Assembly: GCA_965649765.1 (NCBI GenBank)
Contig: OZ287757.1
Location: 52,080,001-52,144,000, forward strand
Direction: 5' to 3'
Length of the DNA stretch: 64,000 nucleotides
Source: Bispira polyomma
Taxonomy: Eukaryota
Shown: positions 56,150 through 64,000 of the stretch, piece by piece
Position numbering within the stretch: the first letter of the stretch is position 1
How the letters are laid out: the number at the start of each line of letters is the position of its first letter
Position numbers and translations under genes: made by a program
The notes under the pieces: generated by a model
The model's input: only the letters and a program-made list of their open reading frames with translations
What the model was told of the DNA's origin: nothing
Databases searched by the model: none

Positions 56150-57900
56150 TAGGAAACATACACAAAGAATTTCATTGTTCACCACTCCTGACATGACCAA
56201 AGATGGGTGAAAGAGTGAAGCTCCCAAAAGTTGATATTGAGCATGCGTTCATAAATCAATGAGTTGACCCACTTGACTGGAGTACAAAAAGAAATCTAAT
56301 CATTACATCAATCAAGCTTGGACTTGGGTATTTTGTGAGAGTTTCTTATTTGATTACTCATATTTTGCAAGATCATTATTATAAAGTGTTTAATTATTTT
56401 GATGATATTATTATCGTTGAAACTGAATCTAAGGCAACCTTAGCCTATAAATGTTTGCAAGATTTACTACATTAGTTAGGACCACCTATAAATAAGAAAC
56501 AAAAACACATTATTTATAAATCGTAAATTATTACGAGATTCGGTTAATCAAAAACAGTAATATTAAATGGAGAATTTCAGAAAGAACTGAAGTGGTTCAT
56601 GAAGTTAAAAAAAAAAAAAAGACGAGATATTTCATTGCAGTTTGATGCATACCTGCAATGTATAGGAATTTCTGGTATGGATGTATTCACAACAGCACTT
56701 CTGATTTGGATTACACAGGCACACAGTATTGTGCATTTTGAAATGCTTGGTGTTACAAATTATGGGCTACAAAATGGAAAGATAAAACGATACAAATACA
56801 TTCAGATAATTAAGATGTGCTATTGATGTACACATTGACCACATAGAAAACGAAAAAACGAAATATCATAGCAGACACCCAGTGGCATGCCAGTGGCATG
56901 ATTTGGGAGCTCAAACACCACAAATAAAAACACAAATTTGTAACAAATTTAATATGAACAGATTTCCTATTAATGTATTTGTACTTGACAATGACATTTA
57001 ATTGTTTTTCAAACAACACAAACACTTTACGACCACTACTGACATCAGCCATGAATAGAATAAAACAAGTCACAGACTAAGAACTATTAGAATGCATTAA
57101 GGTCAAATCAGATAAGAATTGGCTTTTGTGATATATCACAACATACAACACACTTTTTAACTTTAGTACAATTTTGGCATTTATGGTATTTTTACAACAA
57201 AAAAGTTTGTCATAGAAAGTAATGAACAATTATTTGGCAGCAGTAAGGCACTTTTCAAAACATCTTGGTCTAGAAGACACGCATTTATATGATGCAAGAA
57301 TAACGTCTTGTCAGAAATCATTGATGACAAAAACAAGACAATGCCAATCACTTCCATTTTCAGAATTGTACCGTACAGCATTTCTGTTTGCTTGTTTTGG
57401 ATTTCTTAGAATGTCTAACCTTACACCACAATCAGCTACTTCTTTTTATGTGACTAGACACATCACAAGGTCATATAATTTTCGCTCATCCTGGCATACA
57501 TTTAGTTTTGAAGTGGTCCAAAACCAACCAAACAAGGACACAACACGATCTTATACAACTACCAAAATTAAAAAAAAATCCATTATTATATCCAGCAAAT
57601 GCACCAATGGCATTATTTCAAGAGTATCCTTTGCCAGGACATGCACCATTATTTTGCAGACCTATTAGCTAGATGAAATTGTGTAACAGAAACAAAGTTG
57701 AGGACAATTTTGAAAACACTTTTGCAACAAAGTAAAATTTCATAAATAATACATTTTTCCATTGTTTAGAATGTCAGGAGCCGACCCTGGCCTTTAACAA
57801 CAATGTAAAACTACAAAATATACAAAAACACAGATGCTGGAAATCTGATGCTGTTTGACTTATTTAGAATCCACCTCTCACACAGCTAACATTATCCCGG
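56150..57900 (+). mobile_element. decayed YR retrotransposon (RT, RNaseH and YR remnants), related to the intact neighbour
   Basis: KVDIEHAF..VDPLDW, YFDDII, FDAYLQCIG, SIVHFEM, NNYLAAVR, AFLFACFGFLRMSNLTP, and TLAFNNNVKLQNIQKH.CWKSDAV parallel the ORFs at 60011-63502 in the same order. Confidence 0.8.
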
Positions 57901-58346: not shown

Positions 58347-58442
58347 TACTAGGTAAACCCAACGGGGTTAGTGAGATCAGTGCAGACCTTAAACCCTCTT
58401 GTTAAAACTATTCTGGTTATGATGACCTTGGCTACTGATTGG
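58347..58442 (+). repeat. split direct repeat A1 (minimum extent)
   Basis: Identical to 63905-64000 over all 96 visible bases. Confidence 0.95.
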
Positions 58443-58865
58443 CCAGCAGTCCCCCCCTTTTCCTCTCTAAATTCGCGCTAAAAGCCTGAAACCTCACTTT
58501 AAATTAAGAATTTGTGAAGGGCAGAACGCCATCTTAAAAAATTTGCAACTATTTTAACTTTGTTTTTATATTTTTACATAACTCTTTTATTGTGTGTTTT
58601 ACCAAGGGCTTCTACATTACCGAGTCTTTATATATGTTGTGGTCAATGGATGGTCACTAATTGGACTTAATTGGAGGCTTGCTGGCACCAGACGGGAGTT
58701 ATTTGTCAAACTGCTTTGACATATGCGAATTTTGCTCTTCTTCTAGGGCTACGGTTGAGGGCTGTTTTTTCTTTGGTTTGGAATTTATCTAAATTTATTT
58801 AATAAATACTACCTCAACTTAAAAGATCCGCATATACCAAAGCATTTTTCTGTACATTTGTAGAG

Positions 58866-59993
58866 ATGGCACCTAGGGTGAACCATGACTGTAGGGCGTG
58901 TAAAACTAGTCACAAGAAGCCCATTAATGACAATTGTCCGTTTATAAATCAAACTGAAACTGTTGAACAAAGTGACACTTCTAGTGTAGCGTTAAATTTA
59001 CGCATTTTAGAAGAACTAAAAGGCTTGAGTGGCCGCATGTCAGCAATGGAGAAACGTGTAGAACAGAGTGAAAATAGACATAATGTTGCTAGTACTTTTA
59101 GTGCAGGTTCCGTGGCTACTGCTTCTAGTGAACTTTCTGCTATACCCATGTATGCTCAGCCGTCAGCTAGTAGTATTTCTAGCACACAGATCGGGGCCCC
59201 TGTTCCCGTGGGGTTTCCTACTACAGCCACGTGTATACAGTCCACAGTTCCAGTAACCAAGCCAGCGGCTACAGTCCAGGCAACACTTCCTGTTCCAGAG
59301 ACGGAAGACACACTGGTTCCCTCGCTGACTACCCTGAAAACATCAGACTACTTACAACAGGCTGTGGATTCTAGACTTCGTGACCTTGCTGGACTTAATG
59401 AAAAAGGTAACTTTAAATCCCAAAGAGGCGGAGCCGAAACGGTCTGGGTTAAACGTCAAGTGGCCTGGCCACAAAATCATATACTTGGGGGGACCACAAA
59501 AGCGCGGACAACCTATGACAGTCTTTCAATGGCTCAGTGGGTATCCGGTTTCTGTTCTATAGTAAGAGATGAAAACAATGTTGACATAAAGAACGCTATG
59601 CTCGATTATGCCCAAGACTTAATGGAAGATTGTAATGATTTTTCCTGGCCAGCTGCCAAAGGCAGCCACGCAGTCTTACTTTGCCGTATGGAAGAGGGTA
59701 AAGTTTCATGGGACGAGACAACAAAAATTGACCGGATTCGAAGGGCTCATGCCCAAAAAGTAGTCAATACTTCTAGTCATTCCACATATCACAGTGCAAA
59801 TAGGCAAAAAAGTAACGAAAAGGCGTTTCCCTGTAGATACTTCCAGAAAGGATCGTGTCCTTATAAGATTGATCATGAGACTAAAGGTCAAATGTATCTG
59901 CACATTTGTGCCACTTGTTTTACGTTTGGCAAAAATTTCTCCCATGCCTCCAAGGACTGTTATAGAAAACAAAGTAATGCAAAAAACGAGTAA
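58866..59993 (+). CDS. ORF1 gag-like protein (N-terminal CxxC, coiled coil, C-terminal Cys/His zinc-finger motifs)
   Basis: 375 aa; CRYFQKGSCPYKIDH and HICATC...H..KDC at the C-terminus. Confidence 0.85.
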   Translation: MAPRVNHDCRACKTSHKKPINDNCPFINQTETVEQSDTSSVALNLRILEELKGLSGRMSAMEKRVEQSENRHNVASTFSAGSVATASSELSAIPMYAQPSASSISSTQIGAPVPVGFPTTATCIQSTVPVTKPAATVQATLPVPETEDTLVPSLTTLKTSDYLQQAVDSRLRDLAGLNEKGNFKSQRGGAETVWVKRQVAWPQNHILGGTTKARTTYDSLSMAQWVSGFCSIVRDENNVDIKNAMLDYAQDLMEDCNDFSWPAAKGSHAVLLCRMEEGKVSWDETTKIDRIRRAHAQKVVNTSSHSTYHSANRQKSNEKAFPCRYFQKGSCPYKIDHETKGQMYLHICATCFTFGKNFSHASKDCYRKQSNAKNE

Positions 59994-62500
59994 GGCACTG
60001 CAGTACAGCAGTGCCCAAATGTCATAGAAAAAATGCTACTTATGGTACTAAGATACCTGTAAATGACTGTAAAAAATGTTATAATGGTAGAACTATAAAT
60101 AATGTGAATATCAAACACTTGTGTAGCGACAACTGGAGGGCTGATTGGGCCAGGTTTGAAAACAAAACATATGCTCAGATAGTCAAACAAAATAGTGGTA
60201 TTTCAAATAGAAATAACAAGCATGAAAAATCTGCAAAGACAGGTCGAAAAGTTCCCCCCAATTGTCGCCCAAATGTAAATAAAAATGTGTACAAAAAGAC
60301 AGCAACTACTAGTGTAAACAGTTGTATGTTTTCAGAGGTGAAGGTGAATGTGGCACAATCACACTACCCGAAAATGGAGATCAAATGCCCCAAAGTACCT
60401 ATTGTAAACAATAGGTGCATCGACACCTATAATAATAAACAACAGGGTGTTCACAAGGTAATCTCAGAAACAATGAGTGGTTCATTGTGCAATGTTAGCA
60501 CAAAATGTCACCGTAAACAACAGGATGTTCGCAAGGTAATCTCAGACAAAACGAGTGTCCCATTGTGCAAGGTTAGCATAAAATGTCACAATAGGTTCAC
60601 ACCTTTGCAAACAGGCATGGGAAGTAACACGAATGACAATAACACACCATTATACTTGGCGGATGATATCCCCAATAATCAAGCAGGGGACAAATACGAG
60701 CTACAATTACAGGTGAAAAAGAAACATAGAGAAGCTATAGCCAAGGCGGAAAACAATCCTTTCTTCAAAAAATGGAATACTCAAAACAAAGAAAAATTTG
60801 GCTTTATTCCATTAGGTGATCTTAAACTACCAGAGGAGCTAAAGGCAGGTCCACACTTAGGTGACCCTCTGGAAGTTCATAAATTAGTCAAAAAAGGCAA
60901 ATGTCATAACTTCTTAGGTACTCAAATACCAGTAGCCTCTCAGCTAAATGTCGACGAATGGCACAAGTTACTAAATGACTATTGGGATACCCAATTAATT
61001 CATTTGATAAAATTCGGATTTCCCTTAGATTTTGATAGGGCTTGTCCATTAGAAAATAAAGGTGATAATCATAGCTCGGCCATCCAGTTTAAGGAAGATG
61101 TACAAGCATATTTGAGAGAGGAAAAAGAGTTTGGAGCAATCATTGGCCCATTTCAAGAACCCCCATTAGCTCACTTACATGTGTCACCATTCATGACCAG
61201 ACCCAAACCGGATGCTAAACATAGGAGGGTTATCATTGATCTAAGTTGCCCACACGGCCGGGCAGTCAATTCAGCCATAAGTAGAGACCAATATTTGGAA
61301 ACCCCCTTTATACTAACACTCCCCACTGTTGACGACATTACGCGAAATGTAATCAAGTTAGGTAAGGGGGCACTATTGTACAAACTAGACATTAGTCGTG
61401 CATTCAGGCATGTAAAGATTGATCCAGCTGACTATGAACTCTTAGGATTACAACTGGACAACTACTATATTGACACGTGCCTGCCATTTGGCTATCGCCA
61501 TGGCAGCGCAATTTTTCAAAGACTAAGTGACGCAATTCGGTTCATCATGACGTCACAAGGTCATGACATCATAAACTATATTGATGATGTAATAGGGTAC
61601 GGCCTCCCCTCAAAAATCTTTGAATCATTTGAAAAACTGAAAGAGGTATTTAGTAGATTAGGTTTTGCAATCAGTAAGAAAAAAGTTGTGGCTCCTAGCA
61701 CCAAAGTGGTATGTCTAGGTGTCCTAGTTAACACGGAAGACTATACTGTCTCTATTCCAGATAACAAATTAGAAGAAATAAAACAAACATGTACAAATTG
61801 GATTCACAAGAAAAGCTGTACTAAAAAACAGCTACAGTCGTTACTCGGGTCATTATTATACATCTCTAAATGTGTCAAAACTTCTCGAGCCTACTTAAAC
61901 AGAATGTTGGACACCTTGAGAAGCTCTCAAAATACTCAGGAAATTAAGTTGGACATAAGTTTTCACCAGGATTTGAACTGGTTTAATACTCTGTTAACAA
62001 CATTCAATGGCATGGCCTTCTTTGACCATAGACCAGTTACAGACCAAGTACACCTGGACGCATGTCTACAAGGCCTAGGTGCTTGTTGTAATAATCAAAT
62101 TTTTGCAAAAGAGATTACTCTCGGGTACAGAAATTACACTATCGTCCACCTTGAGATGATAAATATTTTAGTTTCCATTAGACTTTGGAACAAGCAGTGG
62201 ACTGGACAAAAACTATTAATACACTGCGATAACCAAGCAGTTGTTTCTATTTTGAATTCTGGTAAGACATATGACCTTACTTTGGCAGCCATGACCAGAA
62301 ATATTTTCATGGAAGCTGCAAAAGCGGATATAGAGTTAAGAACAGTACATATCCTGGGCAAAAGAAACAACATAGCTGATCTACTCTCTAGGTGGGCTAT
62401 TACGCCAGATAGAAATAAAAAATTAAATGAATTAATGCCAAATAAACCCACCTGGTTACAGGTCTCTGATGACCTATTGGAAATAGATTGGTCTATTTAG
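59978..62500 (+). CDS. ORF2 reverse transcriptase / RNase H (frame opens at 59978, overlapping the end of ORF1 in the -1 frame)
   Basis: HVSPFMTRPK, RRVIIDLS, KLDISRAFRH, LPFG, NYIDD, CLGV; RNase H residues in HLDAC, HLEM, HCDNQA, IADLLSR. Confidence 0.95.
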   Translation, partial: CKKRVRHCSTAVPKCHRKNATYGTKIPVNDCKKCYNGRTINNVNIKHLCSDNWRADWARFENKTYAQIVKQNSGISNRNNKHEKSAKTGRKVPPNCRPNVNKNVYKKTATTSVNSCMFSEVKVNVAQSHYPKMEIKCPKVPIVNNRCIDTYNNKQQGVHKVISETMSGSLCNVSTKCHRKQQDVRKVISDKTSVPLCKVSIKCHNRFTPLQTGMGSNTNDNNTPLYLADDIPNNQAGDKYELQLQVKKKHREAIAKAENNPFFKKWNTQNKEKFGFIPLGDLKLPEELKAGPHLGDPLEVHKLVKKGKCHNFLGTQIPVASQLNVDEWHKLLNDYWDTQLIHLIKFGFPLDFDRACPLENKGDNHSSAIQFKEDVQAYLREEKEFGAIIGPFQEPPLAHLHVSPFMTRPKPDAKHRRVIIDLSCPHGRAVNSAISRDQYLETPFILTLPTVDDITRNVIKLGKGALLYKLDISRAFRHVKIDPADYELLGLQLDNYYIDTCLPFGYRHGSAIFQRLSDAIRFIMTSQGHDIINYIDDVIGYGLPSKIFESFEKLKEVFSRLGFAISKKKVVAPSTKVVCLGVLVNTEDYTVSIPDNKLEEIKQTCTNWIHKKSCTKKQLQSLLGSLLYISKCVKTSRAYLNRMLDTLRSSQNTQEIKLDISFHQDLNWFNTLLTTFNGMAFFDHRPVTDQVHLDACLQGLGACCNNQIFAKEITLGYRNYTIVHLEMINILVSIRLWNKQWTGQKLLIHCDNQAVVSILNSGKTYDLTLAAMTRNIFMEAAKADIELRTVHILGKRNNIADLLSRWAITPDRNKKLNELMPNKPTWLQVSDDLLEIDWSI
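59981..60015 (+). promoter_or_regulatory. predicted -1 programmed ribosomal frameshift signal
   Basis: A_AAA_AAC in the ORF1 frame (59981-59987), spacer GAGTAA, hairpin GGCACTGC-AGTACA-GCAGTGCC (59994-60015). Confidence 0.75.
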
Positions 62501-62516
62501 TTTTTAACAATTTCAG

Positions 62517-63502
62517 CTTCCCCGACCTGGTTCTCCAAACTAGCAGATAGAGCAGTCACTCGAGCACATCAGGCCTTTCGGCCTTCTACACAAAAGGCCT
62601 ACACATCCATGTTTAGAGTATTTTTAGCTTACTGCTGTTTTGCCAATATTGCCAATTCTAACATTACACCCACAGTCATTCTGGCCTTTTTAGAGGTCTT
62701 AGTAGTTAATAACACATCACACACTTCAGTGGCCAACTACCTCTCAGCTATAAAAGCCAGTATGTCATTGTATGGACTACAAGTAACTGCTTTTTCGGAT
62801 CAAAGAATCAAGTATTTTCAAAAAGCCCTCATTTTACATAAGCCCTTTAGGGCTAAAATTAATGGCATTATCGACATACATTTATTGGAAAATATAGCTC
62901 TTGTGTGTGATTCCATGTACATGGGACAAATCTATAAAGCTGCTTACCTTTTAGCCTTCTTTTCATTTTTGCGAATCTCAAATTTAGTCCCTCACTCTCA
63001 AAGTTCATATTCACCACTGCAGCAACTTGCCAGGGCTGACATTATATTCGCCCCGCCAGGTGCGCATATAATAATTAAATGGACAAAAACCCTCCAATCT
63101 CGTAATGCTATTAAGCTTATTAAAATTCCTGTGTTAAAAAATAAAACCATTTGCCCGGTAGCAGCCCTGAAAGTACTTCTGGCAATCACTCCTGGAACCA
63201 AAAACTCTCCACTATTTCAGGTTAAAGCTCACACTCAGTGGTTGACTTTAACAGATAGTAAAATTCGCAAAAATCTTAAGGATATATTAACTAGATTAAA
63301 TAAACACCAGGCAAACATTACTTTCCACACGTTTAGACGTTCTGGGGCGACCCTGGCCTTCAATGCACATGTCCCTTTACAGGACATTCAAAGTCAGGGC
63401 ATCTGGTCTTCTGAATGTGTGTGGAGGTACATCACACAGGACCATTCAGCCTCTGATCAGGTCGCCCTGGCCCTCCAATCTTTGCTCAACCCTACTTCCT
63501 AG
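62517..63502 (+). CDS. ORF3 tyrosine recombinase (coding frame extends upstream of ATG 62609)
   Basis: FLRISNL (R), KWTKT (K), HTFRRSG (HxxR), GIW, VWRY (Y); AFRPSTQKAY lies upstream of the first Met. Confidence 0.9.
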
Positions 63503-63904
63503 TTGGGCCTTGGTGGTTATTGTATCTTTTACTATCATTACAGCGTATAAACTTACAAAATTTTATCTATTAAGGCCACCTTATAGTCAAAACTTTGCAT
63601 AACCTTAACTACACACATGTAAGGCTTAGGCCAATTGAAATCTTGTAATTATGTTAAGGTTACCTAAAATTCTGGTAAACTTAAAGTCTAACTAAAGTTA
63701 CGTTGACCTTAAATTTAGTATGTGAAGTCACCCTTAAGGTGATCTTAGACTAAACTTAAAACTTTTAACTAAGGTGGCCTCACTGTCAGATCTTAATATG
63801 TTTTATACCAGTTAACTATATGTGTAGTATAGATTAAATATATATAATCCCAACTGCTAGTTTCAATCAAAGGTCACTCTCCTTAATGCAAGGGCAAGGC
63901 ACTG

Positions 63905-64000
63905 TACTAGGTAAACCCAACGGGGTTAGTGAGATCAGTGCAGACCTTAAACCCTCTTGTTAAAACTATTCTGGTTATGATGACCTTGGCTACTGATTGG
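63905..64000 (+). repeat. split direct repeat A2 (cut by the window end)
   Basis: Identical to 58347-58442. Confidence 0.95.

Follow-up and report, generated by a model that had tools for sequence, protein, structure and literature searches.

A candidate −1 frameshift signal and a predicted splice in the expression of a Ngaro-type retrotransposon from Bispira polyomma

Introduction

A 64,000-nucleotide stretch of the Bispira polyomma genome (GenBank assembly GCA_965649765.1, contig OZ287757.1, positions 52,080,001 to 52,144,000 of the forward strand), referred to here as the window, carries a retrotransposon with successive open reading frames (ORFs) for a Gag-like protein, reverse transcriptase (RT)/RNase H (RH), and tyrosine recombinase (YR). 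This arrangement raises the question of how elements of the order DIRS obtain three proteins from one RNA, for which the portions of the literature available to us appear to give no tested mechanism. Within this order, the absence of a methyltransferase is what separates Ngaro from PAT and DIRS1. In the available parts of the sources that define them, Ngaro elements have gag, RT/RH, and YR on one strand, the repeat order A1-ORFs-B1A2-B2, and no methyltransferase (PMC3783388, PMC8547959, PMC4157794). Unlike retroviral and long terminal repeat (LTR) systems, an element of this type has no protease or DDE integrase, as described in an available section of PMC3783388. For the YR, Poulter and Butler (2015), as quoted in an excerpt of PMC13003380, held that it is probably reached by frameshifting.

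A preliminary description of the window, made from the sequence alone, proposed that a −1 ribosomal frameshift fuses Gag to RT/RNase H. This central claim is now strongly supported by the heptamer, spacer, stem, and reading frame that recur across divergent families of related elements. The cassette at 59981 to 60015 is very probably a programmed −1 frameshift signal, by which a minority of ribosomes would make a 1211-amino-acid (aa) Gag-RT-RNase H protein, with the YR probably being made from a spliced RNA. All features described below lie on the plus strand, and positions are those of the window unless another locus is named.

Results and Discussion

A slippery heptamer and a stem-loop at the end of gag

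ORF1 (58866 to 59993) encodes a Gag-like protein of 375 aa with C-terminal Cys/His boxes and the terminus K-N-E-stop. Its last codons, GCA AAA AAC GAG TAA, place the slippery heptamer A_AAA_AAC at 59981 to 59987, in the X_XXY_YYZ register of the gag zero frame. The −1 frame, ORF2, is free of stops from 59978 to 62500 (840 codons) and has its first ATG at 60326. Downstream of the heptamer lies a 6-nt spacer (59988 to 59993), which contains the gag stop codon 3 nt past the heptamer, followed by a stem-loop (59994 to 60015) that is the predicted frameshift stimulator. Its arms, 59994 to 60001 and 60008 to 60015, form an 8-bp stem around a loop measured at 6 nt. Re-reading the sequence and its ORFs bore out every coordinate of the preliminary description, together with its spacer and stem lengths. 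The predicted fusion comprises 374 + 837 = 1211 aa, where about 1210 had been given.

A 33-nt piece of the cassette folds at −15.7 kcal/mol (z score, −5.5), which none of 200 shuffled sequences equaled; the z scores of longer pieces are −2.5 (80 nt) and −1.7 (141 nt). The plus strand of the window contains 559 slippery-type heptamers, 25 of which are AAAAAAC, and this is the only one of the 559 that has, 5 to 9 nt downstream, a perfect 8-bp stem containing five or more G/C. On the minus strand, there is none. A_AAA_AAC ranks among the shiftiest heptamers and typically acts with a spacer of 5 to 9 nt, according to the available part of PMC5009743.

The heptamer is conserved at the nucleotide level

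Related elements were compared in a set of 130 sequences, consisting of the window, loci L052 to L060 and L121 to L140, 59 plus 40 picked stretches, and one metagenome locus. The 59 stretches were chosen from 120 lower gag-search matches, favoring those without stops, and the 40 further stretches were chosen for diversity. Single-linkage clustering at 85% yielded 42 families. Copy counts are slightly inflated, because 11 of the 130 sequences are duplicate places. The heptamer is conserved: A_AAA_AAC stands in frame at the end of gag in 115 sequences and 36 families, and it occurs in any frame in 118 sequences. The terminal K-N codons read A_AAA_AAC in 111 sequences, G_AAA_AAC in 5, and A_AAA_AAT in 3, with no such codons in the remaining 11.

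The codon usage at this site was assessed in a control set of 35 families (protein identity, 38 to 86%; median, 48%) that were picked on protein alone, so that the test is not circular. The terminal lysine is encoded by AAA in 35/35 families and the asparagine by AAC in 35/35, while the preceding base is A in 34/35. At 26 other conserved residues with two-fold codons, both synonymous codons are used, the majority codon accounting for 50 to 94%, and AAC makes up 31% of the asparagine codons in gag. The contrast between the fixed AAA/AAC and the mixed codons at the 26 control residues indicates constraint at the nucleotide level.

The gag stop codon follows the heptamer at +3 nt in 29 of the 36 families, with all three stop codons in use, and lies 18 to 21 nt away in the other seven. 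A stop codon 3 nt past the shift site is also found in the pea enation mosaic virus frameshift, as described in an available passage of PMC5009743. The position one codon past the heptamer, with any type of stop, is thus common to both systems, which differ in heptamer and host and in the seven families with a more distant stop.

Beyond this sample, the K-N terminus is present in 65 of 74 Gag proteins of other assemblies that have a full Cys/His box, possibly drawn from few assemblies. Among more distant Gag proteins, it is present in 41 of 68, a set obtained from 150 proteins by removing 76 without a Cys/His box and 6 with long tails; the chance rate of K-N in this set is estimated at about one in five. 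A metagenome scan retrieved at least one relative locus (L181), and IMG/VR yielded no relative. Rfam returned just two chance-level matches, and an Atlas search returned eukaryotic clusters without names and nothing else.

RT/RNase H is open in the −1 frame and has no conserved start

Twenty-six RT-bearing frames of at least 640 codons were available, and all 17 that extend back to the heptamer are in the −1 frame (17/17). Seven of the remaining nine are broken and start 103 to 874 nt downstream, and two have no in-frame heptamer (L161 and L181); in L161, gag and ORF2 are fused by an indel. L160, L161, and proteins P0052 and P0066 are damaged copies of this kind, in which an indel places gag and ORF2 in one frame; from them, homology across assemblies is evident for what follows the heptamer. 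A −1 position of pol is also common in animal LTR retroelements, where it was counted in 28 of 51, as reported in an available section of PMC5009743.

Across families, the first ATG lies anywhere from 0 to 378 codons past the heptamer. A block of 17 codons in the −1 frame containing W-R-x-D-W (60131 to 60181), present in 17 of 21 families, precedes the first ATG in the window and in 12 of these 17. Its departures fall mostly on the third codon position (35, 31, and 97 at positions 1, 2, and 3). The −1 frame is open across the site in a way characteristic of canonical −1 frameshifting, and no start codon for RT is conserved across families.

Alternatively, RT/RNase H could be translated from an internal ATG, or from an RNA that is spliced or subgenomic, the short overlap with gag being incidental. 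The element does contain working-looking splice sites, and the window copy offers a phase-1 acceptor at 60335 as well as a GT directly after the heptamer. However, neither of the latter two sites is conserved, nor is the ATG at 60326. Eleven of 30 copies lack this ATG, the AG of the 60335 acceptor is private to the window copy, and GTAR follows the heptamer in just 12 of 36 families, so that the ATG, the acceptor, and the donor were each rejected. Acceptor-like sites in ORF2 are spread evenly over the three phases (65, 64, and 56), and no bin is shared by more than 3 of 33 families. This route would also leave unexplained the fixed codons and the uniform −1 frame, and we regard it as very unlikely.

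The spacer and stem are constant in position, and the pseudoknot is not conserved

A stem of 6 to 13 bp starting 5 to 9 nt past the heptamer is predicted in 36/36 families (starts from 4 to 10 nt were examined), in agreement with the spacer and stem proposed earlier. Averaged over these families, 40-nt windows have a folding energy of −15.8 at +5 nt, compared to −2 to −6 at distances of at least 20 nt on either side. The stems fall into four sequence types, and between clades their position is constant and their sequence different. In the 21 families that share the stem of the window, the two arms reach column identities of 0.98 and 0.95, against 0.73 for the loop and 0.58 and 0.51 for the flanks. 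Contigs of three public runs stop matching at 59979 to 59981 and at 60014 to 60015, which are the edges of the cassette.

The preliminary description had further proposed that the loop pairs with GTACT at 60045 to 60049, in which case the frameshift would be real and its stimulator an H-type pseudoknot. The five bases are indeed complementary, and possible loop-to-downstream helices occur in other families, with 9 bp in L167 (P = 0.05) and L137 (P = 0.04) and 7 bp in L175 and L150 (36 tests, uncorrected). In contrast, the GTACT partner, present in 22/22 close copies, is found in 0/7 diverged copies that keep the cassette; the loop sequence differs in 12 of the 21 families with the window stem, and in the window the loop pairs with downstream bases no better than it does in shuffled sequence (P = 0.48). 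In addition, the 5-bp pairing would leave zero bases for loop 1. The pairing, although possible, was rejected, and a pseudoknot stimulator in the window element is considered improbable.

Elsewhere in the clade, the region 8 to 60 nt past the heptamer could plausibly fold, in the L167 family (e.g., L131, L167, L172, and L180), into an H-type pseudoknot whose second stem has 9 bp. Weaker candidates lie behind the heptamer of L150, L175, and L137.

The cassette could also serve as a cis element for packaging, dimerization, or priming, or the A run could cause polymerase slippage. Such a role would fit a stem that is near-invariant within a clade and not covarying, and the loop of the window contains the palindrome GTAC. 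However, the heptamer holds the gag codon register (in all but 3 of its 118 occurrences) and the spacer stays within its 5- to 9-nt range, while the stem sequence shifts between clades at a fixed position. The palindrome is not conserved, and the run is just A6, closed by a fixed C. A cis role or polymerase slippage in place of frameshifting seems highly improbable.

A conserved predicted splice donor and acceptor point to a separate route to YR

The ORFs also contain a pair of potential splice sites, absent from the preliminary description and new here. A predicted phase-1 donor, A-G/GT-A, lies in gag at 59405 to 59409 (last exon base, 59406), just 5′ of the conserved gag domain. The phase-1 gag donor is found in 38 of 40 evaluable families and 100 of 110 copies, and all 21 aligned Gag proteins share the glycine at the donor. 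At the start of YR, a predicted TTNYAG acceptor (62511 to 62516) is in phase 1 in the YR frame. A YAG in this phase is present in 84 of 90 copies and 36 of 37 families, compared to 23 of 90 and 22 of 90 copies for the other phases; positions −6 and −5 of the acceptor are T in 99%, although the search used YAG alone. The conserved GT donor and the YAG acceptor, which agree in phase, delimit a candidate gag-to-YR intron and predict, with considerable confidence, a GagN-YR fusion of 508 aa made by splicing.

Ribosomes could instead reach the YR by reading through the ORF2 TAG or by frameshifting a second time, as proposed for Ngaro in a review quoted in an excerpt of PMC13003380. In the window, YR does follow the ORF2 stop in the same frame, and it is in the −1 frame in 15 of 37 families, several with an overlap of 25 to 46 nt. 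However, relative to pol, the YR frame takes all three values (0, +1, and −1 in 14, 8, and 15 families, respectively) and 17 families have no overlap, so that readthrough or frameshifting cannot explain the data. This route also leaves aside the conserved phase-1 acceptor and phase-1 gag donor, and we consider it unlikely. For this clade, the sequences thus point to splicing to YR in place of the frameshift put forward in print, in the portion of that literature available to us.

Among the 15 of 23 joints listed for the contigs of the three public runs, no joint fits the predicted gag-to-YR splice. Protein P0255 (526 aa) was considered as a splice product and rejected, being an RNase H-YR fusion.

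A further intron of 88 nt, with GT...TTTGTAG ends, is predicted in the 5′ untranslated region (UTR) at 58776 to 58863, ending 2 nt before the gag ATG. A near-identical copy, L044 (G000:C7:10735057-10738638), is without exactly these 88 nt; it is one such case among 20 aligned loci, with a 1-nt ambiguity in placement. L044 is likely a retrotransposed spliced RNA. The loss of the 5′ UTR intron in this single case suggests that element RNA underwent splicing and was afterwards reverse transcribed, the frameshift cassette being retained. A strict TTNYAG occurs within 12 nt of the gag ATG in 12 of 33 families. Three other deletions of at least 30 nt in copies have no GT...AG ends.

A two-RNA model for Gag, Gag-RT-RNase H, and GagN-YR

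Taken together, the cassette and the splice sites suggest the following scheme. An RNA unspliced across 59407 to 62516 would yield Gag and, in all probability, Gag-RT-RH by −1 slippage. On this RNA, most ribosomes would terminate at the TAA, giving the 375-aa Gag. A fraction of them would stall while the hairpin occupies the mRNA entry channel; their tRNA-Lys and tRNA-Asn would move back by one nucleotide on A_AAA_AAC, and synthesis would proceed through RT and RNase H. The sequence, the frames, their conservation, and one intron-less genomic copy for the 5′ UTR intron are observed, whereas the slippage, its rate, and the gag-to-YR splice are inferred. The stimulator would be a simple stem-loop, as predicted, perhaps aided by the nearby stop codon. 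In a second RNA, joining of the donor at 59406 to the acceptor at 62516 would excise the frameshift site together with the whole of RT/RH, and this RNA would encode the 508-aa protein.

More broadly, it is likely that two switches operate in a large Ngaro clade: an A_AAA_AAC frameshift that would set the ratio of Gag to Gag-RT, and a splice that would join GagN to YR while removing the site and RT/RH. The families would then form a natural series of stimulators, comprising short hairpins, long hairpins, and H-type pseudoknots. Of the earlier interpretation, the −1 frameshift is retained and the pseudoknot is not; the splice route to YR formed no part of it.

Several observations weigh against this reading. 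Compensatory stem changes, a check suggested in the preliminary description, were not found within aligned clades (0/7 pairs in the second clade), and three misaligned rows plus an outer pair account for most of those counted in a further comparison. An 8-bp stem is also short for a sole stimulator. The exact in-frame heptamer is missing from 6 of the 42 families. One of these carries G_AAA_AAC, four consist of a single copy in which the vicinity of the site is disturbed by frame breaks or foreign sequence, and the sixth is the metagenome relative L181 (33 to 36% gag identity), which lacks a heptamer and keeps gag, TGA, and pol in a common frame. L181 is a real exception, possibly a readthrough variant or a damaged copy (the arrangement suggestive of readthrough is at L181:1290-1400), and it keeps the gag donor and the YR acceptor. 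The signal is not universal, because 27 of the 68 distant Gag proteins do not end in K-N, and K-rich Gag tails yield some K-N matches by chance. The families are not independent events, owing to shared ancestry and their origin mostly in one genome. Finally, no intron-less gag-to-YR copy was present among the best 40 of 149 DNA candidates or the best 150 of 8000 protein candidates.

Comparison with known expression strategies

The gag-pro junctions of mouse mammary tumor virus (MMTV) and human T-cell leukemia virus use A_AAA_AAC −1 frameshift signals. With retroviral and LTR signals, the cassette shares the heptamer class, a 5- to 9-nt spacer, a 3′ structure, a nearby gag stop, and a predicted Gag-Pol fusion. 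It differs from MMTV in its stimulator, a predicted short hairpin where MMTV has a pseudoknot, and from these systems in general in that the integrating enzyme lies outside the frameshift product and is predicted to arise from the splice. Making several proteins from one element RNA by alternative splicing is likewise a trait of Ty1/copia-type elements, which express an integrating enzyme through splicing; in copia, splicing sets the ratio of Gag to Pol. Unlike in those elements, the splice predicted here would drop RT/RH and join half of Gag to YR.

The literature searched contained no account of a slippery site between gag and pol for Ngaro or DIRS, although an earlier remark in older Ngaro reviews or descriptions is possible. 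The available portions of PMC3783388, PMC8547959, PMC6681497, PMC3266345, PMC9210276, PMC7192593, PMC4157794, and PMC3212892 describe no slippery site, and those of PMC5009743 mention neither DIRS nor Ngaro. Likewise, a program combining a frameshift and a splice was not found for any tyrosine recombinase element in the literature, as far as the accessible parts extend.

The mechanism itself is textbook; what is new is the class of host, how deep the conservation runs, and the combination with splicing. The clade supplies exact coordinates for both expression steps and implies that RT and YR would enter particles as Gag fusions. Annotations that begin RT or YR at the first ATG would then truncate them. 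A Gag ending in K-N offers a simple protein marker, and the dozens of natural stimulators behind one heptamer should be useful for frameshift studies.

Structure and genomic setting of the host element

By its structure, the element that holds the frameshift site fits an intact, recently amplified Ngaro-type retrotransposon. The gag, RT/RNase H, and YR frames are all on one strand, with RH and YR Pfam matches that are weak and mostly under curated cut-offs. ORF1 has no Pfam match and 129 homologues. ORF2 comprises a variable linker, RT (RVT_1, aa 409 to 582; E value, 1.7e-12), and RNase H (RT_RNaseH, aa 710 to 763, under the curated cut-off). It ends about 30 aa past RNase H, and no methyltransferase domain was matched in Pfam at an E value of 0.01. 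ORF3 (62501 to 63502; predicted exon, 62517 to 63502) encodes the YR in the frame of ORF2, after its TAG, with weak Phage_int_SAM and Phage_integrase matches and 503 homologues.

Split direct repeats in the order A1...B1A2...B2 enclose these frames. A1 (58347 to 58558) forms the 5′ end, a boundary common to near-identical copies, and is 100% identical to A2 over 212 nt. B1 (63513 to 63904) is 99.7% identical to B2, located beyond the window (L061:1843-2234), and abuts A2, which starts within the window (63905 to 64000). The element continues from there through a 725-nt spacer to B2, for a total of approximately 6.9 kb. ORF order, split repeats, and lack of a methyltransferase are shared with the Ngaro superfamily of the order DIRS, whereas the 725-nt spacer between A2 and B2 departs from Ngaro as defined. 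Two of four other copies checked share the spacer and B2; the other two (L182 and L185) end after B1, without A2, spacer, or B2. The final bases of repeat B (63896 to 63904) read AAGGCACTG, as do the nine bases opening the frameshift stem (59992 to 60000), which may be chance.

In the 1.04-Gb host genome, 15 copies at 99% identity or higher and 7 at 92 to 95% were found among 40 scored candidates, and the gag domain gave more than 9,000 first-look candidates. Genome size and splice-site type are consistent with an animal host. Two linkers vary by tandem duplication. A 78-nt duplication, in frame, occupies 60436 to 60589 in the ORF2 linker, one unit of which is missing in L050 and L051, and an in-frame duplication of about 141 nt is present in the gag linker of L033, L036, and L043 (window equivalent, 59118 to 59259). 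Just 5′ of the element, positions 57216 to 57668 hold a decayed tyrosine recombinase-like frame of another element. Further upstream, the region from 37508 to 38275 matches at 83% the flank past the element's 3′ end (L061:2300-3106) and represents another repeat family.

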